NCBI GenBank assembly: GCA_030690305.1
Contig: JAUYHB010000020.1
Coordinates: forward strand, 23,535-87,534
Source of the DNA: a bacterium
GTDB lineage: Bacteria; Patescibacteriota; Minisyncoccia; Phycocordibacterales; JAGLPS01
Length of the DNA stretch: 64,000 nt
Reading direction: 5' to 3'
Positions 1,714 through 35,041 of this stretch are shown piece after piece. Positions within the stretch are counted from its first letter, which is position 1; every line of letters begins with the position of its first letter. A program made the translations under genes and the position numbers. The notes under the pieces are model-generated. The model did no database searches and was not told where the DNA came from. It was given only the letters and a program-made list of their open reading frames with translations.

Positions 1714-2337
1714 TCATTGGAACGAAATACCGGTAATAAGAGAGAAGAGAAAGGCGACAATTGGCGTAATAAATCCCCAAAGAAAGAATACAAATATAAG
1801 GAGGAGAAAAAGGCTCCATTCCTCAATGCGGGCCCGCCACTCATAGAGACGGTGCGGAAAAAGGGCAAAAAGGATTTTTGAACCATCAAGCGGTGGGATA
1901 GGGATAAGATTAAAAACCGCCAATATAAGATTTATCTGAACAAGAAGCACCGCGATTGAAAGAAAAGTTTCCGGAAGAAATCCGTATAAAAGACCGAAAC
2001 GCACGAGCAGCCCAAATACGCTAGCGAGTACAAGATTTGTTGCAGGACCGGCGCCGGCGACGAGGGCCTCTCCCCACCTTGGACTTTTAAGGTTGTACGG
2101 ATTGTACGGAACCGGTTTCGCCCACCCGAAAATAAATCCTCCCGCGTAGTAAGAAATCGCGGGAACAATTACCGATCCGAGGGGGTCGATATGGCGAAAC
2201 GGGTTAAGTGTCAGTCTTCCGGAAATTTTTGCCGTATCATCTCCCAGAGCAAGGGCCATATAGCCATGCGACACCTCGTGAGAAACAACGGACATAATAA
2301 GAATGGCTATGGCAAAAATGAAGTCCAACTCTTGCAT
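1714..2337 (-). CDS. Site-2 protease family (peptidase M50) zinc metalloprotease
   Basis: Polytopic membrane protein with an HEVSHG (HExxH) motif and a downstream NLIPIPPLDG motif typical of M50/SpoIVFB-like proteases. Confidence 0.7.
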   Translation of the reverse strand: MQELDFIFAIAILIMSVVSHEVSHGYMALALGDDTAKISGRLTLNPFRHIDPLGSVIVPAISYYAGGFIFGWAKPVPYNPYNLKSPRWGEALVAGAGPATNLVLASVFGLLVRFGLLYGFLPETFLSIAVLLVQINLILAVFNLIPIPPLDGSKILFALFPHRLYEWRARIEEWSLFLLLIFVFFLWGFITPIVAFLFSLITGISFQ

Positions 2338-4021: not shown

Positions 4022-4615
4022 ATGCATACATACTCACCACAAAAATTCAGCATCCCGACGTTAAAAGGAATCTCGCAAAAGCAGATTGATATACACTTGG
4101 TCCTCTACGATGGATACGTCAAGCACGTCAACCTCATCCGCGAGCGGATACAGGAATTGAACACCGAGCCGGAAAAGAATAATTATCTTGCTTCGGAAAT
4201 CCGTCGTCGCTTCGCTTTTGAATTCAACGGCATGCGTTTGCACGAATTTTATTTCACATCATTTGAAGGAGGCTCCAAGGAAGCGAATACCGAAAGCGAA
4301 TTGGCAAAAAGCGTTTCCGAAAAATACGGAAGCTGGCAAAAGTTTATCGAGCACTTTACGACCGTCGGACTCACGCGCGGAAACGGCTGGTCAATTCTCT
4401 ACTACGACCCCATTGGCAAAACTCCTCATGTCATTTGGGTAGACGAACATCACATCGGGCACCTCGGTTCTTTGCCTGTAATTTTGGCTATGGATATGTG
4501 GGAGCATGCATATATGGTGGACTATCTCCCCGCACAAAAAAAAGAGCATATTACAGCCTTTCTTTCCAACATTAATTGGGAGACTGTGGAAAAAAGATTG
4601 AAAGAGGTCATTTGA
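4022..4615 (+). CDS. sodA: Fe/Mn superoxide dismutase
   Basis: 197 aa with Fe/Mn-SOD motifs (FNGMRLHEFYF, DMWEHAYMVDY). An extended -10-like tgtgataaaat lies upstream. Confidence 0.85.
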   Translation: MHTYSPQKFSIPTLKGISQKQIDIHLVLYDGYVKHVNLIRERIQELNTEPEKNNYLASEIRRRFAFEFNGMRLHEFYFTSFEGGSKEANTESELAKSVSEKYGSWQKFIEHFTTVGLTRGNGWSILYYDPIGKTPHVIWVDEHHIGHLGSLPVILAMDMWEHAYMVDYLPAQKKEHITAFLSNINWETVEKRLKEVI

Positions 4616-5626: not shown

Positions 5627-7080
5627 AAAATATATAACACAGCGGTTACAAAACCGGACAAATGAATCACCGCGACGGAAAACGGAAGATTTGAAAAGAA
5701 ATGGGCAACGGCAAAAACATATGAAGAAATAATAGAAGTGAAAAGAGAAAATGGCGCTGCAAGCACGGGAGAAAATAAACCGACACACGCCGTCACAAAA
5801 CCGCTAAACATGATAAGCGGAGTAAGAGGGAGGACTAAAAGATTGACCGGAAACGCCATAAGCGGGAACTCCCCTCCCCGGTAAACAATCAAAGGTAAGA
5901 CAAGGAGTTGCGTGGCAATGGTTGCAACGGCAATTTCTTTAAACTGTGCCGGAATTTTTGAAAAATATTTTTCTATGAGGGGAGAAATTGCTATGAGCCC
6001 GAGTGTGGCAAGAAAAGACAACTGGAATGACGGGTCGAAAGCGGCGGTATAAGGATTGAAAAGTATCATAAGAAAAGCGACAAGACATAACAGCCGCACC
6101 GGAGCGGCATGCCGATAAAGCAATTTCCCAAGAATAACAACAAGGGCCATGAGCGCCGCGCGGACAATGCTCGCTTCAAAACCAACCATTGAAACGAACA
6201 GCAACACAAATGTCGACGCGAGGACATATGCGATTGTACGCGGAAGAAAAGAAGAGAAAAGCCAAAGGCTTGCCAGCACCACGAGAGAAATGTTGTAACC
6301 GGACAAAACGACAATATGAATAATGCCCGTTTTCCTGAATTCATCTTCAACATCTTTCGGAATAGACTGTTTTTCACCGAGCAACATTCCCGCAACCAGG
6401 GAAGCGTGCGGTTCCGGAAGAGTGCGGATAAGGCTTTGGGTGAATGTCTTTTTCATGGCAAGCAATTCCCGTCTTAAAGAGAAACTTGCACTCGGCGAAA
6501 CCGATTGTATCTGCACATTTTTTATCGTATACAGAATGCCGTCTTTTTTCAGATACGAAACATAATCGAAGGTAATTCCATATTCATTTTCAAATGACTT
6601 CGGCTTTTCAAGTATGCCTAAAAGGAAAACCGTATCGCCGTACTGAAACGATTGATATGGATCTGTGGTAACAAGAATTTTGTTTTTCTTGGAAAAATTG
6701 GCCGGAATTTCAGTCCCATTTATGTTCTGCGCGAGAAGGATAATCCGAGCGGTCGTGTCCCCTTCCCGCGGCTCATCAACGATAATCCCGGAAACGGAAA
6801 TACGTTCTGAAACAAAATCCGTGAAACGCTCTTGCGGAACAGCGAAATGGAAACGTAATGACCCGAAAGCAAATGCCAAAAAGAAAACTGCCAGAGAGGC
6901 AAGCGGCACAAAGATTTTTCCGCGCGTTTTCTTCAGAAAGAAAAAATACACAAAGAGATAAAAGGAAATGAGAAAGAAAAAACAAATTGAATAAATATCA
7001 AGAGAAACAAAAGAGCGGAGGAAAACTCCGCCCACAAAGCCGAAAAATAAACTATACAACCCTGCCGCCAAGCCCTTCAT
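5587..7080 (-). CDS. comEC: DNA internalization competence protein ComEC/Rec2 (DUF4131 + competence channel domain; lacks MBL domain)
   Basis: 497 aa polytopic membrane protein. The N-terminal OB/DUF4131-like region and multi-TM competence domain are typical of ComEC. Its start overlaps the rnhA stop. Confidence 0.75.
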   Translation of the reverse strand: MKGLAAGLYSLFFGFVGGVFLRSFVSLDIYSICFFFLISFYLFVYFFFLKKTRGKIFVPLASLAVFFLAFAFGSLRFHFAVPQERFTDFVSERISVSGIIVDEPREGDTTARIILLAQNINGTEIPANFSKKNKILVTTDPYQSFQYGDTVFLLGILEKPKSFENEYGITFDYVSYLKKDGILYTIKNVQIQSVSPSASFSLRRELLAMKKTFTQSLIRTLPEPHASLVAGMLLGEKQSIPKDVEDEFRKTGIIHIVVLSGYNISLVVLASLWLFSSFLPRTIAYVLASTFVLLFVSMVGFEASIVRAALMALVVILGKLLYRHAAPVRLLCLVAFLMILFNPYTAAFDPSFQLSFLATLGLIAISPLIEKYFSKIPAQFKEIAVATIATQLLVLPLIVYRGGEFPLMAFPVNLLVLPLTPLIMFSGFVTACVGLFSPVLAAPFSLFTSIISSYVFAVAHFFSNLPFSVAVIHLSGFVTAVLYIFIFLFLFRRARSV

Positions 7081-7771
7081 ATTCCTTTATGAGCGCCGTC
7101 TCGTCCAAGTCGTCGCTTGTTTTTCGAAACCGGGCAGGTTTTCCCTTCACGGCCTTCTCGCACTCGCCCCATGTTGTGTGAATCCGAATAACACCGTCAA
7201 GCAGACTCACATACGAGTACGCTTTCACGTTTTTTCTTGACTTGCCTTCTTCGCGTTTTTCTCTTTTTCCTTCGTCATAGTCGGTATTTAAAATATCAAT
7301 GCCATATTTGGGAAGCGGGCCGATATAGAGTTTCATATCCGTGCTCGTTGAAAATGATGCGGCAATCATATCCACTCGCTCGTTTCCGGGAAGTCCACTA
7401 TGTCCGGAAACATGCCTCCACTCAATCTGTTTCTCTGAAATAAGACGGGCAAGATCTTGCCACAAAGAAAGATTAGCGACTTCTTTTTTGGCTTTTGTTT
7501 TCCATCCGCGTGTCTGCCAGTTCGTAAGCCACTTCTGCGCTCCGTTCACGACATATGCGGAATCGGTAAATAAGATGATCGGCGTATCATTTTTCACAGC
7601 CGAGAGTCCCCGCACAACCGCTTCCAATTCCATGGCATTGTTTGTTACGTTTTTTGCCGCACCTCCCAATTCCGCAACCGTTTCATTTTGGACAATAATA
7701 CTTCCCCATCCCCCATTACCTGGGTTCCCCGATGAAGCACCGTCCGCAAAAATAATCGTCTGATTCTTCAT
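7052..7771 (-). CDS. rnhA: Ribonuclease HI with C-terminal hybrid-binding (Cauli_VI-like) domain
   Basis: N-terminal RNase H fold (ADGASSGNPGNGGWGSI, TNNAMELEAV, HSGLPGNERVD). The C-terminal segment YSYVSLLDGVIRIHTTWGECEKAVKGKPARFRKTSDDLDETA matches the RNase H1 HBD consensus (TW.EC...V...PARFKKF...EA). Confidence 0.8.
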   Translation of the reverse strand: MKNQTIIFADGASSGNPGNGGWGSIIVQNETVAELGGAAKNVTNNAMELEAVVRGLSAVKNDTPIILFTDSAYVVNGAQKWLTNWQTRGWKTKAKKEVANLSLWQDLARLISEKQIEWRHVSGHSGLPGNERVDMIAASFSTSTDMKLYIGPLPKYGIDILNTDYDEGKREKREEGKSRKNVKAYSYVSLLDGVIRIHTTWGECEKAVKGKPARFRKTSDDLDETALIKEYEGLGGRVV

Positions 7772-9981: not shown

Positions 9982-10245
9982 TCAAGAGAACATAGAAATA
10001 ATGATCACCCCAAAACCGGATATTGCTACAACCGATCGGAATGCGAGATTATCACTTGGCGGGGGTGGCAGAAAAAACTTCACTATTGAAGCAAATCCGC
10101 AAATTGCGACTGCCTCATAGAGATAGCGAGACACAGGCAAACCGGAGGATTCTAAAGAGAGTATCATATAAATAACTACCAGCAACAAAATTTGTAAGAT
10201 AGTGCAAAGAATGGCAAGTATGTCGAGCTTAAACTGGGAATACAT
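9982..10245 (-). CDS. Small hypothetical membrane protein (87 aa)
   Basis: Two predicted hydrophobic helices; no homology recognised. Confidence 0.3.
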   Translation of the reverse strand: MYSQFKLDILAILCTILQILLLVVIYMILSLESSGLPVSRYLYEAVAICGFASIVKFFLPPPPSDNLAFRSVVAISGFGVIIISMFS

Positions 10246-10324
10246 TCTGAACCTCCTTTTTTTAGTTCACAATCAAAGAGCTTTTTGCCAATGCTAATAC
10301 AAATTCTATATGCGTCAAGGGAAA

Positions 10325-11434
10325 CTACGACAGTGCCTCAATTCCCGGTAATGTTCCTTTTGCCAAGAAATCAAGCATTGCTCCTCCTCCCGTGGAAATA
10401 AAGGAGAACTTATCGTTTAGTTTGAGTTTTGCAATCGCAGCGATTGTGTCCCCTCCTCCGACAACAGAGTGCGCATCAGAATCGGCAATGGCTTTTGCAA
10501 CAGCAAGCGTCCCTTCGGTAAAACTTTCTTCATAGGCACCCAAGGGTCCGTTCCATAAAAGTGATTTTGAGCGCTTGACCGCGTCAACGATTTTTTCAAG
10601 CGTGTGTTCTCCCGCATCGACGATTCTGTCATTGTCCTGGATGTGAGAAACAGGAATCGAAAGAGACGTGCCACGCCTTTCTACAACGACATCTTCCGGA
10701 AGGATAAGGCGTTCGTCATTTAAAAAATTTCCAAGGTTAAAGTCTCCCTCGGTATACAAGGATTTTCCGATTGACAATCCTTTTTCTTTGAGAAAATTAT
10801 TTGCAAGTGCGCCCGCGACAACAACCGTATCGGCAAGAGAAAAGAATTTCTCTATAAGAGGCAGTTTGGTGTCAAATTTTGCGCCACCCAAAATAAATGT
10901 GAAAGGATGCTCCGGATTCATTATCCCCCCAAGCTGGGTTGCCTCTTCAATAAAACGAAATCCCGCATATCCGGGGATGAATTTTGGTACGCCAACGATT
11001 GAGGCATGTGTTCTGTGGGAGGCGGGGAAGGCTTCGTTGACGTAGACGTCGGCAAGAGAGGCAAGGGATTTGGCGAACTGTTCGTTATTTTCTTTTTCTC
11101 CCGGATTGAGACGCAGGTTTTCAAGGAGGACAATGTCACCCCCCTTCATTGTATCCACAAAAGCGGATGAGCCGAGATACTCCTTCTCGAAAGTAAGCGG
11201 GAAAAATTGTTGCAGATATTCAAATACCGGATACAAAGAGTTTTCCTCTTTTCCTTCAAAGTGGCTTGCGAGAATAATTTTTGCGCCGCGTTCTTTTAAG
11301 AAACGGATGGTGGGAAGCGCGGAAGCAATACGGAAATCGTCCATGACGGCTCCCGAGAGAACAGGCACATTGAAATCAGCGCGCAGAAAAACTCTGACAC
11401 CCGCGTAATTGTCTATGTCTTTAATGGTACGCAT
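10325..11434 (-). CDS. pgk: Phosphoglycerate kinase
   Basis: N-terminal RVFLRADFNVPV motif plus other PGK signatures. Confidence 0.9.
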   Translation of the reverse strand: MRTIKDIDNYAGVRVFLRADFNVPVLSGAVMDDFRIASALPTIRFLKERGAKIILASHFEGKEENSLYPVFEYLQQFFPLTFEKEYLGSSAFVDTMKGGDIVLLENLRLNPGEKENNEQFAKSLASLADVYVNEAFPASHRTHASIVGVPKFIPGYAGFRFIEEATQLGGIMNPEHPFTFILGGAKFDTKLPLIEKFFSLADTVVVAGALANNFLKEKGLSIGKSLYTEGDFNLGNFLNDERLILPEDVVVERRGTSLSIPVSHIQDNDRIVDAGEHTLEKIVDAVKRSKSLLWNGPLGAYEESFTEGTLAVAKAIADSDAHSVVGGGDTIAAIAKLKLNDKFSFISTGGGAMLDFLAKGTLPGIEALS

Positions 11435-28856: not shown

Positions 28857-28914
28857 TATAGTAGCAAAAATCCAGTTGTTGGGCAATTTTTTACCGATTG
28901 TTATAATCAAACAT

Positions 28915-30018
28915 ATGAACATATTTTTTCGATTTTTTATCCTCTTTTTTATTGCTCTCGCTACAAATTTTTCATTTACCACACCTGCTTCCGACCAAAA
29001 ACAAGATTTTCTTTTACAAGAAACTGAAGAAAAAGTCCCCGAAACCATTAAAGAAAAAGAGTCGGTTTTAGACACGAAAACTCCCGAAAAACCTGAAATG
29101 CTCGTGGTCTCCAGTGGAAACTTGCCTGAGCAACCACAAGTGAGTATTGTGGCAACTCAACCTGAAAAAAGCACGATTGACTTTGAAACAATCAACACAA
29201 GGGCTCGAGAATCTTTGGTAAATGTTCTCTGTCTTGCGAAAGGAGGAGGTCTTCTGCCCATTACCGGCAGCGGAGTTTTTGTGTCCGAAAAGGGCGTCAT
29301 TCTCACAAATGCCCATATAGGGCAATATTTTCTGCTTGATAATTTTGTTGATTGCTTCATCAGAACCGGAAGTCCGGCAACGGCAAAATACAAAGCCTCT
29401 CTCCTGTATATCTCAAAAAGATGGGTAGTGGAAAACTCAAAGAGTATCGTCACGGACAATCCTAAGGGTACGGGAGAAAACGATTACGCCTTACTTTTGG
29501 TGACAGAAACAACCAATAATTCACAGTTACCGGGCGTATTCCCCCACCTTGAAATGGAGCTTACGAATGAGCCTCAGCAAAATGATGCGGTTCTCATTGC
29601 CGGATATGCCGCAGGCTTTTTGGGAGGATTAACAATTGAAAATGGTCTGTCGATTCTTTCAACCATAAATAATATTGCAAATATTTTTACTTTCAAGGAG
29701 ACCACGGTTGACCTGCTTTCCATAAGTGGAAGTATTGTTTCTCAAAAAGGGTCGTCAGGGGGAGCAGTGGTCAACGAGAAGGGAAAACTTGCCGGAATTG
29801 TTGCAACAGCAACCCAAGAATCGGAAACCGAGACAAGAGAGTTGCGAGCAATAACCACAGGCCACGTCAACCGAAGTTTCTCTGAAGAAGTTGGTGAATC
29901 AATTCCATTATTCTTCTCTCAAAATCTTCAGGAAAAAATGAAGTTTTTTAGAGACTTTGAATTCCCTTCCTTACAAAAAATTCTCTTGGATAAAATAGCG
30001 GAAAAAAACAAAAACTGA
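28915..30018 (+). CDS. Secreted trypsin-like (S1 family) serine peptidase
   Basis: Signal peptide (MNIFFRFFILFFIALA); TNAHI (His) and GSSGGAV (the GDSGG-like Ser motif). Confidence 0.65.
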   Translation: MNIFFRFFILFFIALATNFSFTTPASDQKQDFLLQETEEKVPETIKEKESVLDTKTPEKPEMLVVSSGNLPEQPQVSIVATQPEKSTIDFETINTRARESLVNVLCLAKGGGLLPITGSGVFVSEKGVILTNAHIGQYFLLDNFVDCFIRTGSPATAKYKASLLYISKRWVVENSKSIVTDNPKGTGENDYALLLVTETTNNSQLPGVFPHLEMELTNEPQQNDAVLIAGYAAGFLGGLTIENGLSILSTINNIANIFTFKETTVDLLSISGSIVSQKGSSGGAVVNEKGKLAGIVATATQESETETRELRAITTGHVNRSFSEEVGESIPLFFSQNLQEKMKFFRDFEFPSLQKILLDKIAEKNKN

Positions 30019-30223
30019 GGATAGGATCATGGATTTAGTCCACGATTAGGTCTTTATCTTGAAATTCGGGGAACCGGGATTTGAATCTTACAGATTCTGT
30101 ACACCTTTCGCATTTTGAAAACAAAATGCTCAAGGTCTTGCAGCGCGCTCCCAGCACGCTTCACCCGGAGTCGTTTCTCCTTCGGAGCCACGGATATTCC
30201 CCGAATATCCGATCAATTCTCTG

Positions 30224-30294
30224 TCGGGGTGCCGAGAATCGAACTCGGGTCTTACGCTCCCAAAGCGTGAATACTACCATTGTACTACACCCCG
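30224..30294 (-). tRNA. tRNA-Pro (anticodon TGG)
   Basis: Manual fold: acceptor CGGGGTG/CACCCCG, anticodon stem CACGC/GCGTA with loop TTTGGGA, T-arm CCGAG-TTCGATT-CTCGG. No encoded CCA. Confidence 0.8.
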
Positions 30295-30345
30295 ACACAA
30301 AATTGATCCCAAAGCGAGTATGTTACCGTTGCACTATTCCCCGTC
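30295..30345 (-). pseudogene. Truncated 5'-half copy of tRNA-Pro(TGG), directly 5' of the intact gene in tandem
   Basis: Minus-strand CGGGGAATAGTGCAACGGTAACATACTCGCTTTGGGA aligns with positions 1-38 of the adjacent tRNA-Pro, including an identical anticodon loop, then diverges. Confidence 0.5.
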
Positions 30346-30394
30346 GCAAGAAGTCTAGCACAGCAAAGGAATTGCCGAAAGTTGTCCTTTAAAA

Positions 30395-30802
30395 TCAAAG
30401 GATTAAATCTTCGAGTAAATCAATTTTTGCCTTTTTCCCCTCTCTGTCGAGATAAATTGAAACAGCCCCGAACGTCCATTCAACATCTTCCATTTTTCTT
30501 TCTATCAGGTAGAGGGATATGGTTTCAGAAAGTCTCTTTAATTTTAAAGGATGAATGTTGTCCTCCGGTCTGTAAGTGTCTTTTGTTTCATAAGAAACAT
30601 CATGTTCGATGTTTTCACATGAAACAGTTTTGACTTCAAAAAAATAAGTCTTTGAGTCCTTTTTGGCGATAATGTCTATTTCTCCTTGTTTCTTTCTAAA
30701 ATTTCTTTCGAAAACCAAATATCCCTTAGATTTTAAAAATCGACAGGCAATATCTTCTCCCAAACGACCAACTTCTAGATGTCTTTGTTTCATGTCAAAC
30801 AT
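30395..30802 (-). CDS. yraN: YraN-family (UPF0102) endonuclease-like protein
   Basis: GEDIACRFLKSKGYLVFERNFRKKQGEIDIIAKK...FFEVKT matches the UPF0102 signature. Confidence 0.7.
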   Translation of the reverse strand: MFDMKQRHLEVGRLGEDIACRFLKSKGYLVFERNFRKKQGEIDIIAKKDSKTYFFEVKTVSCENIEHDVSYETKDTYRPEDNIHPLKLKRLSETISLYLIERKMEDVEWTFGAVSIYLDREGKKAKIDLLEDLIL

Positions 30803-31051: not shown

Positions 31052-31125
31052 TGGTGCGAGTAGGGGGAATCGAACCCCCACCATCTGATTGGCAACCAAA
31101 TGTTCTACCATTAAACTATACTCGC
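31052..31125 (-). tRNA. tRNA-Gly (anticodon GCC), CCA encoded
   Basis: Manual fold: acceptor GCGAGTA/TACTCGC, anticodon loop TTGCCAA, T-arm GGGGG-TTCGATT-CCCCC, and a genomically encoded 3' CCA. Confidence 0.85.
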
Positions 31126-34111: not shown

Positions 34112-35041
34112 TTACTTTTGATTGCCCTTGTTATGGAATCGATGGTGCACATCACGAAGATGCTTATCCGTAACATGAGTATAGATTTGCGTTGTCCCAA
34201 TGTGCGCGTGGCCCAAAAGGGCTTGAACCGAGCGTAAATCTGCGCCGCTCTCAAGAAGATCAGTCGCAAAACTATGCCGGATGACATGCGGCGTTACTTT
34301 TTTGGTGATACCCGCCTTAATGGCATAGTATTTTACAATTCGTTCTACCGAACGTGAAGTAAGTCTTTTGGCATTAGTGTCGTGCCTGCTTACATGGATG
34401 AATAAGGCATCTTCCATGTCGGTTCGTTTTCCAAGGTACTGGCGTATTGCCTCCTTCGCACGCGGGGAAATAAAAACTACGCGCACTTTGTCTCCTTTTC
34501 CACGGATGGAAACTTCATCTTTCCTCAAATCAATATCTCGGGGAAGAGAGCAAAGTTCTGAAACACGAAGACCTGTGGAAAAAAGCAATTCAAGTATCGC
34601 CCTGTCCCGCAAATCCTTAACTGTTTTGGCATTTGGGGCTTCAATAAGGCGTTGCAGTTCATCCGCCGAAATGAGATCCAGGGAGCGTTCTCCCACTTTG
34701 GCAAGCTCTATACGATCCGGAGACAGAGACTGTATTTTCCGGCGCATAAGATACTTAAGGAAGGAACGAAGGGCAATAAGATAATAATTTTGGGTACGTT
34801 TTTTGAGCGTGTCGTAAGGGCCTCCGCTTTTCGTCTTTTTTCTGTTAAGAAAAAGGCGGTATTCCCTGATTAAATCGTCGGAAATATCTTCCGGTTGCTC
34901 GGTTCCGATAAAAATAAGAAAGGAGTCCAGGTAATGGGCGTAATTTTCAACTGTTTTGAGGCTTCTGCCTTTCTCGATTTCAAGATATTCGAGAAATTCT
35001 CGTTTGAGCTGGGTAAGCGTCATAACAACATTGTGCGACAT
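34112..35041 (-). CDS. xerC: Tyrosine recombinase, XerC/XerD family
   Basis: C-terminal catalytic motifs R...HSFATDLLESGADLRSVQALLGHAHIGTTQIYTHV (R-H-R-Y), with an N-terminal SAM-like domain. Confidence 0.8.
   Translation of the reverse strand: MSHNVVMTLTQLKREFLEYLEIEKGRSLKTVENYAHYLDSFLIFIGTEQPEDISDDLIREYRLFLNRKKTKSGGPYDTLKKRTQNYYLIALRSFLKYLMRRKIQSLSPDRIELAKVGERSLDLISADELQRLIEAPNAKTVKDLRDRAILELLFSTGLRVSELCSLPRDIDLRKDEVSIRGKGDKVRVVFISPRAKEAIRQYLGKRTDMEDALFIHVSRHDTNAKRLTSRSVERIVKYYAIKAGITKKVTPHVIRHSFATDLLESGADLRSVQALLGHAHIGTTQIYTHVTDKHLRDVHHRFHNKGNQK

Follow-up and report, generated by a model that had tools for sequence, protein, structure and literature searches.

The question raised by this locus is what surrounds a proline transfer RNA (tRNA) gene on the minus strand of a Patescibacteriota contig, JAUYHB010000020.1, of which the whole stretch of 64,000 nucleotides (nt) analyzed here is called the window. 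The intact tRNA-Pro(TGG), at 30223/4-30294 (-), is called by ARAGORN and matched by the Rfam model RF00005 with 61.9 bits. It is preceded by a segment resembling a tRNA 5' half and followed by a 138-nt stretch (30066-30203). We observed that the inner 78 nt of this stretch, termed E, belong to a genuine structured RNA family supported by covariation, named E1. An earlier note on the same DNA had described the tRNA, the 5'-half segment, the 138-nt stretch and three perfect hairpins, and we recovered all of them in the sequence. The 138-nt stretch folds far beyond chance, with a minimum free energy of -61.2 kcal/mol (z = -5.7; none of 200 shuffles was as good). It received no ARAGORN call and no Rfam match, either to RF00005 at its gathering threshold of 29 bits or at E-values up to 10.

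To read the history of the locus, we compared it with three orthologous loci (L208, L036 and L207), each lying between YraN-like and protease genes. The MAFFT alignment of the four loci misplaced short remnants; the junctions were read by eye and from pairwise alignments. L208, a related metagenome contig whose protease is 69% identical, possesses a single intact tRNA-Pro(UGG) gene, designated A (CGGGGAATGGTGTAACGGTAACATACTCGCTTTGGGAGCGAGCGACTCCGGGTTCAAATCCCGGTTCCCCGA), which in parts reads CGGGGAATGGTGTAACGGTAACATACTCGCTTTGGGA-GCGAG-CGACTCCGGG-TTCAAATCCCGGTTCCCCGA. In L036 (RNase Y 80% identical), a cassette carrying a second tRNA-Pro, designated B, is present at the same junctions as in the window, without E, and the T arm of gene A is unbroken, CGACTCCCGG|TTCGAATCCGAG (CCCGG|TTCGAAT). 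L207 (protease 83% identical) carries both the cassette and a 78-nt E, arranged as in the window. Since the cassette occurs without E in L036 and with it in L207, E arrived last. On this comparative reading the order of events, from an intact gene A to a cassette with B and then to E in the T arm, is secure. Originally a single tRNA-Pro(UGG) gene, A, stood between the YraN-like and protease genes. A 133-bp cassette with tRNA B then landed just after the anticodon loop of A, replacing nt 39-43, and finally the 78-nt E inserted between nt 53 and 54 of A. Having lost to the cassette the bases GCGAG, which formed the 3' side of its anticodon stem, gene A is dead as a tRNA, B being supplied instead. 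The event looks like an exchange in place, in which a foreign tRNA-Pro allele (B-type) took over from the resident one (A-type).

These comparisons changed the status of several features. The 5'-half segment had been taken for a copy of the adjacent tRNA; it is identical to that neighbor at only 29 of 37 positions versus 35 of 37 for the tRNA-Pro of L208. Judged by these identities, it is a piece of a different, older tRNA gene and not a copy of the neighboring one, and the segment and the distal end of the 138-nt stretch are the two ends of that one older tRNA-Pro gene. The suggestion of a disrupted tRNA or recombination scar was thus right in substance, the older gene being intact in L208 and interrupted by one insertion in L036. 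An intron-containing tRNA does not fit, nt 39-43 being gone and the removal of the insert in silico giving no callable tRNA. The proposal of an unannotated structured RNA holds for the inner 78 nt, which belong to a covarying family, but not for the 138 nt as a whole, which is not a natural unit. Rfam and ARAGORN were indeed blank at this place, but the orthologous loci revealed insertions and constraint, not free spacer.

Read 5' to 3' on the minus strand, the composite starts with an upstream region (30344-30395), 94% identical to L207 and largely kept in L208, presumed to be the promoter and leader of gene A. This region is also presumed to drive the whole composite now; a simple promoter scan around it gave a single weak site, further upstream. 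The 37-nt fragment F (CGGGGAATAGTGCAACGGTAACATACTCGCTTTGGGA, 30307-30343) follows and corresponds to nt 1-38 of gene A, with orthologues in L207 and L036. It covers the acceptor 5' strand, the D arm, the anticodon-stem 5' strand and the loop TTTGGGA, which is the same as that of the intact tRNA. The 133-nt cassette (30174-30306) begins with a 12-nt leader, TCAATTTTGTGT (30295-30306), which the window shares with L207 and L036 and which L208 lacks. The leader is followed by the intact tRNA-Pro(UGG) B (30224-30294), presumably the working gene and identical in L207 at 71 of 71 positions, and then by a 50-nt tail (30174-30223) delimited by comparison with the three relatives. An 8-bp inverted repeat, with GATCAATT as left arm (30301-30308) and AATTGATC as right arm (30211-30218), flanks tRNA B, GATCAATT being built from the leader and the last bases of F. 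The tail forms two hairpins, CGGATATT-CGGGG-AATATCCG (30191-30211) and CTCC-GAA-GGAG (30177-30187), the second of which shows a compensatory change in L036, TTCC(T)/(A)GGAA. Next comes nt 44-53 of gene A (30164-30173), the variable loop CGACT and the T-stem 5' strand CCGGG, identical to L208 and to tRNA-Pro of the L008/L019 type. E itself (30086-30163), a type-2 member of family E1, occupies this exact point in L207 as well, whereas neither L036 nor L208 has it there. The composite ends with nt 54-73 of gene A (30066-30085), namely the T loop TTCAAAT, the T-stem strand CCCGG, the acceptor strand TTCCCCG and the discriminator A, all identical to L208.

The 138-nt stretch is therefore a mosaic of the cassette tail, A(44-53), E and A(54-73). 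Its ends, CGGGGAA and TTCCCCG, had been described as a perfect acceptor-like stem. They can pair, but the stem is unconserved in relatives: the opening CGGGGAATA is the loop and 3' arm of the first tail hairpin, its equivalent in L036, CGGAAAATA, cannot pair with TACCCCG, and its equivalent in L207 forms an A.G mismatch against the 3' strand. The strand that stays complementary to the 3' acceptor strand of gene A is fragment F, far upstream. Similarly, the stretch had been thought to lack a foldable canonical T arm. The T arm is present but split, with CCGGG at 30164-30168, TTCAAAT-CCCGG at 30073-30085 and 78 nt between them. No base is duplicated at the junctions of E in the window, the flanks CCGGG| and |TTCAAAT being unique, and the boundary is uncertain by one T.

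We next turned to the family to which E belongs. BLAST and nhmmer searches with the 138 nt gave partial matches behind tRNA genes at other Paceibacteria loci, and a covariance model of E1 was built from 13 copies; the window copy matches it with 61.4 bits (E-value 8e-13). The window and 80 genome loci anchored on RNase Y gave 24 matches, of which 23 were credible (one in the window and the rest in 12 loci). A further 80 metagenome loci, fetched by a core pattern, gave at least 104 among the matches listed, and 42 additional sources gave 48. With one marginal match dropped, the family comprises at least 175 copies in at least 124 sources, on Patescibacteria-type contigs. The elements measure 80-100 nt, have no coding capacity and reach up to 5-6 copies per 15-kb (kilobase) locus. 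Paired states occupied 83% of the alignment cells versus 61.5% in shuffles (0 of 500 as good), and the covariation score was 0.504 versus 0.168 in shuffles and at most 0.17 in controls in which the partner was slid by 1-3 columns. Helix P2 was paired in 100% of cases and P4 in 96.7%, with covariation at 3-4 pairs of P4. RNAalifold, run independently of the model on 30 type-2 copies, predicted hairpin H, P2 and P4, and 11 of 16 pairs covaried.

The type-2 layout consists of GUGA, hairpin H, GCAAG, P2, a G/A internal loop, P3, P2', GUAC(W) and P4 with a UGUAA loop. It corresponds to a four-way junction that the T stem of the host closes and from which H, the long arm P2-P3, the linker GUAC and P4 emerge in turn. 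In the window, the order is UGA, H (30142-30160), GCAAG, P2/P3 (30102-30137), GUAC (30099-30102) and the P4 5' strand with its loop. The complete P4 hairpin, GAATC-TGTAA-GATTC (30083-30097), borrows its last three bases, TTC (30083-30085), from the T loop of gene A (54-56). The same arrangement was found in many members of the family, where GAANN-UGUAA-NN|UUC describes P4 and its 3' strand ends in the target's own UUC (54-56). Hairpin H directly abuts GUGA on one side and GCAAG on the other; its stem takes many different sequences, and its loop carries GG in 26 of 31 copies. About 15 unpaired bases of the core are near-invariant, in GUGA, GCAAG/UCGAAG, UUGAG, GUAC and UGUAA.

No known RNA accounted for these elements. 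Searches of Rfam 15 with the window copy, eight copy-rich loci and copies of a second core, E2 (described below), gave no match for E1 or E2 at E-values up to 10, and no hammerhead, twister, twister-sister, pistol, hatchet, hepatitis delta virus (HDV)-like or hairpin ribozyme was found in the same set. On this basis transfer-messenger RNA (tmRNA), YrlA-type RNA, T-box, RNase P, hammerhead, HDV and twister were rejected, and ARAGORN found no tmRNA in the window. A hammerhead core suspected from 'UUGA[stem]GAAA' proved to be only a tandem G.A internal loop, which some variants lack. The hairpin AGCGUG-CUGGGAG-CGCGCU, considered as a Pro(GGG) anticodon arm, is the family hairpin H, which among 31 copies has other stems and loops and non-tRNA contexts. 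A viral origin was not retained, a pattern scan of IMG/VR giving five chance matches and no covariance-model match; no phage or plasmid matched E by BLAST. The guide arrays of TIGR-Tas consist of unrelated 36-nt units, and the literature searched contained no description of such elements.

The family is closely linked to tRNA genes. Its copies occupy the place of the T loop in stems that derive from tRNAs, for the most part just behind an intact tRNA gene of the same strand. Among the 175 listed copies, 80 follow a same-strand tRNA at a distance of at most 120 nt; 18 others are the second unit of a tandem, 12 stand at the edge of a contig and 65 have no tRNA call nearby. For the first 128 matches, the median gap between tRNA and E1 was 58 nt, and 25 tRNA species were represented. 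The flanks match their own tRNA, with longest exact matches of 9.7 and 11.7 nt versus 5.5 and 5.2 nt for other species (p ~1e-30). In the unbiased RNase Y sample, E1 and/or a 3'-end repeat follows 28 of 131 tRNAs (21%), at 17 of 50 loci; the window has one E1 copy for four tRNAs. In contrast to the type-2 layout of the window, type-1 copies are enclosed in a shell made from the local tRNA. From 5' to 3', the acceptor 3' strand and discriminator (sometimes with CCA and trailer) come first, as reverse complement, followed by hairpin H and by a second reverse-complement segment, taken from nt 57-60 of the T loop and from the T-stem 3' strand. Then comes the core, and the tRNA 3' end, present a second time in direct orientation, closes the unit. 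At several loci a single long palindrome is made up of the inverted copy, a spacer hairpin and the end of the tRNA. At L123 and L086, the element lies within a decayed tRNA copy, past the T-stem 5' strand, and an intact copy of the same tRNA follows. The window E matches the remnant of dead gene A, and not the working tRNA B beside it.

From these observations we lean slightly towards E being an insertion element that is non-autonomous, depends on its structure and is carried along in tRNA transcripts. Its point of entry would be the boundary between stem and loop in T-arm-like hairpins (GGG|UUCRA), where the target's UUC, and in type-1 copies also nt 57-65, would become the second strand of its helices. 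The element would be transcribed within the tRNA precursor and, since no open reading frame (ORF) lies inside or regularly beside it, would be moved or homogenized by machinery encoded elsewhere. Insertion into the sole copy of a tRNA would be lethal, which would explain survivors in dead or duplicated tRNA ends.

Several signs of mobility point in this direction. Empty and filled sites exist for type 2 (L036 and L208 versus the window and L207) and also for type 1: in L015 and L044 nothing stands after tRNA-Pro and the downstream gene starts 2-4 nt past it, whereas in L160 (1925-2230 (+)) two 134-nt units that are 100% identical, and a partial third, fill that gap. The partial unit contains GUGAGGAGAGG, which is Shine-Dalgarno-like and lies 10 nt ahead of the start codon. 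Tandem and truncated E1 copies occur, as well as one antisense copy inside a tRNA-Pro 3' duplicate, and other copies are found where rplK ends or among accessory genes. Within one genome the central cores are near-identical at different tRNAs, P1, P4 and H being locus-specific, and the distribution is patchy, as the 28 of 131 tRNAs and 17 of 50 loci of the unbiased sample indicate. Finally, a Logan contig of the source genome (L206:4105-4189) ends inside E. Together with runs of about 100 N inside large tRNA-Arg-linked elements (L018:14500-14756 and L045:12400-12647), taken as assembly gaps, this suggests that these repeats break assemblies.

Other results weigh against such an insertion element. 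No mobilizing enzyme was found: 499 ORFs clustered from 120 loci gave only housekeeping families and no recurrent mobile-element gene near the copies. The window copy has neither a target-site duplication nor constant terminal inverted repeats. Type-1 flanking stems match the local tRNA over about 12 nt or more, which simple cut-and-paste does not explain; the outer stems vary with the local tRNA, and L160 shows, in place of a short target-site duplication, a repeat of 17-33 nt. We considered a rod-like circle (Campbell-style), fold-back copying from a terminator hairpin, IS200/IS605-like insertion of single-stranded DNA and recombination at a TTCGAA core; each accounts for some copies and none for all. 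The strand test was weak, with a modest excess of G.U over A.C (104 versus 77), and E may fold as RNA or as single-stranded DNA.

The conservation of the composite bears on the same point. Between the window and L207, the promoter region is 94% identical, F 92%, tRNA B 100%, the cassette tail 94%, E 97.4% and A nt 54-73 86%, and identity drops to 49% over the next 47 nt of spacer, right after A73. The whole composite from promoter to A73 is thus kept, at 86-100% by segment. E is conserved like a working gene, at 76 of 78 positions versus 49% for the spacer, and its two differences form one compensatory pair, A-U to G-C. This conservation fits better with an RNA useful to the host than with a decaying parasite, unless gene conversion homogenizes the copies. 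Moreover, pair 6:67 of dead gene A (window 30337-30343 with 30067-30073) is complementary in four of four genomes, as A-T, A-T, C-G and T-A. A pure scar does not predict this complementarity, which could reflect selection on a long-range precursor stem, conversion from other tRNA-Pro genes, or a cassette that spread into different intact alleles and left their flanks in place. No terminator was found between B and E in the window; E is therefore probably co-transcribed with tRNA B, as far as the sequence indicates.

The main rival is that E and E2 are tRNA-linked RNAs useful to the host, a structured 3'-trailer module made from the tRNA precursor; we regard it as possible, if clearly short of probable. 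Such a module could set the limits of processing or decay, imitate a tRNA elbow or minihelix towards an enzyme that binds tRNA, or pair with the 3' half of its own tRNA, which it would serve as cognate partner or decoy. Besides the 97.4% identity of E with its single compensatory change and the conserved block ending exactly at A73, it would account for the position of the elements, always on the strand of the tRNA and close behind it, and for stems tailored to the local tRNA. The cloverleaf-like topology, with GG in the hairpin loop of 26 of 31 copies and a U...A pentaloop, and the existence of at least two core variants (E1 and E2) in the same shell are also in its favor. By contrast, a host function sits poorly with the patchy occurrence (21% of tRNAs, 17 of 50 loci, one copy per four tRNAs in the window) and with the truncated, tandem and antisense copies. 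Nor would it lead one to expect a window copy within a dead tRNA remnant, matching that remnant and not the working tRNA, or copies located at the rplK terminus or amid accessory genes.

The second core, E2, was found in the same shell behind other tRNAs, with the order ...GGCCGGAG-hairpin-GAGGCGGGGUCGCG-hairpin-UGUGACC... and the fuller signature GAA-AGGCCGGAG-hairpin-GAGGCGGGGUCGCG-hairpin-UGUGACC-GAUUC. In L001, the second-closest relative (RNase Y 78%), it stands behind three tRNAs (7150-7350(-), 9990-10086(-) and 10230-10362(-)), and it also occurs in L014, L078, L080, L010 (14060-14200(+)) and L036 (10090-10282(-)). A regular expression retrieved 46 candidate sites, about 30 of them genuine-looking, and E2 is absent from Rfam. 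Its first half looks homologous to P2/P3 of E1. E1-E2 chimeras were seen in L173 and L107. A bolder and quite tentative proposal is that E1 and E2 constitute a new class of tRNA-shaped RNA at the T-loop position of tRNA-derived helices in Patescibacteria. They would be either a self-propagating T-loop invader that copies the 3' end of its target, driven by a ribozyme or a reverse transcriptase, or cognate partner RNAs for each tRNA locus. If the cognate-partner form were true, the variable stems would complement the 3' half of the neighboring tRNA and the conserved junction would recruit a factor. If the class as a whole were true, the composite around tRNA B, including the long-range pairing of the A acceptor, would be a functional precursor architecture, not wreckage.

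A smaller rival, which we judge unlikely, takes E for a spliceable intervening sequence or a small ribozyme of a new kind that cuts, or cuts and rejoins, the RNA at the T-loop junction and spreads by the reverse reaction combined with reverse transcription and recombination. The compact junction of three or four helices, in which some 15 unpaired bases are near-invariant, an exact insertion at 53/54 without duplication and the pairing of P4 with the first bases of the downstream 'exon' would all suit such an activity. There are also precedents for the site, namely the non-canonical introns found at 53/54 of archaeal tRNAs and the group I intron located in the T loop of a clostridial tmRNA. Against it stand the lack of any Rfam ribozyme or intron match at E-values up to 10 and the size of the element, 78 nt being, to our knowledge, far under that of any known self-splicing intron and too short for a group I core. 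The hosts of E are, furthermore, not functional tRNAs. When E was removed in silico with many boundary choices, a junction-spanning tRNA was obtained for only 7 of 128 copies, mostly artefacts of a neighboring intact tRNA. In the window, splicing could not rescue gene A because nt 39-43 are missing.

We consider it very unlikely that the segments are leftovers of attL/attR type from larger integrase-borne elements, since mostly deleted, with E as a conserved arm. Many type-1 copies lie between direct repeats of the tRNA 3' end, each beginning in the T loop, which would agree with it, as would the landing of the cassette with tRNA B at the anticodon loop; repeats starting in the T loop are the classical pattern of tRNA-targeting integrases, and the anticodon loop is a classical integration point. 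The Xer-type recombinase reported 4 kb away is indeed present, as a XerD-like gene at 34112-35041. Nothing ties it to the tRNA-Pro locus, and it is not adjacent in other loci. The helices of E covary like those of a folded single strand, which is unexpected for attachment arms, and the inverted tRNA-end copy 5' of E is not a feature of such scars. In addition, the window E has no flanking repeat, no integrase lies beside the copies, the inserts are 78-200 nt without an ORF, and neither a full-length parent element nor a viral, phage or plasmid match was seen. Lastly, the 138-nt stretch can hardly be a functional expanded tRNA-Pro(GGG): the perfect 7-bp terminal stem with discriminator A and the 6-bp stem with the 7-nt loop CUGGGAG would suggest one, but the terminal stem is lost in relatives (CGGAAAA versus TACCCCG in L036, an A.G mismatch in L207), the 'anticodon' hairpin is the family H with many other loops and non-tRNA contexts, neither ARAGORN nor the Rfam tRNA model makes a call, and the mosaic of cassette tail, tRNA remnant and E revealed by the comparative data contradicts it.

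The surroundings of the locus are housekeeping in nature. The composite lies between a trypsin-like protease gene (28876-30018) and a YraN/UPF0102 protein gene (30395-30802), and the neighborhood also includes genes for RNase Y, ClpP, RsmE and the CCA-adding enzyme. Four tRNAs are called by ARAGORN and Rfam in the window, on the minus strand. Comparison of RNase Y with its relatives assigns the window to the Patescibacteria, within the Paceibacteria/Parcubacteria group, and the protease is 100% identical to a protein of a metagenome-assembled genome designated 'Patescibacteria group bacterium'. YraN/UPF0102 (PD-(D/E)XK-like) is the commonest protein neighbor of E1, at 8 of about 120 metagenome loci (L086-L205), a proximity that probably reflects synteny with tRNA clusters. 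Near the contig end of L207, beyond the YraN-like gene, we observed a second, weak E1 match (2068-2151 (-), 25 bits), and none at the equivalent place in the window, near tRNA-Gly(GCC) (31052-31125).

Some copies were found away from tRNA genes. In L143 (4590-4700 (+)) and L108 (5240-5380 (+)), E1 starts at or within the last codons of rplK (L11). In L143 these codons, an inverted copy and a second direct copy flank E1, and the stop codon apparently derives from the junction. An L1/L11 autoregulatory site was considered and rejected, a terminator and unrelated ORFs, rplA not among them, following rplK in L143. In the 9.5-kb contig L101, four E1 units, two of them in tandem, lie between accessory-type genes at 2540-2935, 4396-4610 and 6437-6650 (+). 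The first unit at each of the three places has the same 29-nt start, resembling a tRNA 3' end, and a palindromic hairpin; no tRNA was called. Among the ORFs of this contig, we take one long product to be RhuM/Fic-like and another to be zeta-toxin-like.

Overall, the comparison resolves a tRNA locus of a streamlined candidate phyla radiation (CPR) genome into three datable steps, an intact gene, a replacement cassette and a T-loop insertion, and accounts for sequence left blank by tRNA finders and Rfam. It also uncovers a large covarying family absent from the catalogues searched, with E1 or a 3'-end repeat behind about one fifth of the tRNA genes in an unbiased Paceibacteria-type sample. The outer helices of this family copy the neighboring tRNA or are complementary to it. 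Were the family mobile, it would target the most conserved hairpin in biology in a new manner; were it functional, it would add a new layer of tRNA biology in a phylum known for odd RNA genes. In either case it provides an RNA of 80-100 nt that is open to experiment and of which nature supplies hundreds of variants.

Compared with known systems, E recalls first tRNA itself, the short interspersed elements (SINEs) and tRNA-like domains. Type-2 copies follow the cloverleaf order, with a closing stem, a short arm with GG in the loop, a long arm, a linker of 4-5 nt and a 5-bp arm with a U...A loop. They differ from tRNA in being unseen by tRNA models, in a linker of 5 nt instead of 1 after the GG arm and in a long arm without the 7-nt anticodon loop. 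The likeness is a resemblance, not demonstrated descent. T-loop introns, namely archaeal introns at 53/54 and the group I intron of clostridial tmRNA, share the insertion position 53/54 and the sense-strand orientation, whereas E resides in dead or truncated tRNA copies and has no group I core, as judged from the lack of an Rfam intron match; as far as we know, bacteria have no archaeal splicing endonuclease. Integron attC sites and the attP site of CTX-phi are recombination sites formed by a folded single strand. As in these, inverted and direct copies of the target flank a variable branched center in type-1 elements, and a folded strand would therefore rebuild a duplex like the tRNA gene 3' end. 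Unlike them, E has no integron integrase or phage context and is conserved in the branched center instead of the stem, and the window copy has no inverted arm.

Among small non-autonomous bacterial repeats, such as REP/BIME, Correia/NEMIS, RUP, the Rickettsia palindromic elements and miniature inverted-repeat transposable elements (MITEs), E shares the short length, the many copies, the absence of ORFs, the stable folding, the position at gene 3' ends, the probable co-transcription and the patchy distribution. It differs from REP- and MITE-type repeats in having neither constant terminal inverted repeats nor a short target-site duplication, in targeting a specific position of a tRNA-type hairpin, in outer helices that are copy-specific and come from the target sequence, and in that no cognate transposase was found near its copies. 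Lastly, tRNA genes reportedly serve as sites for integrative elements, with sublocations at the anticodon loop and the T loop and with tRNA ends that become displaced or duplicated. Both insertions at this locus took place at these classical points, one just past the anticodon loop and one at the T loop. The tRNA carried by the incoming cassette makes good the function that was lost, and direct repeats of the tRNA 3' end stand on either side of many type-1 members. In contrast to such integration, the inserts here measure only 78-133 nt and carry no integrase, and the window E lacks flanking repeats; it is a module whose folding is supported by covariation, and the cassette brings a whole tRNA instead of completing a broken one.

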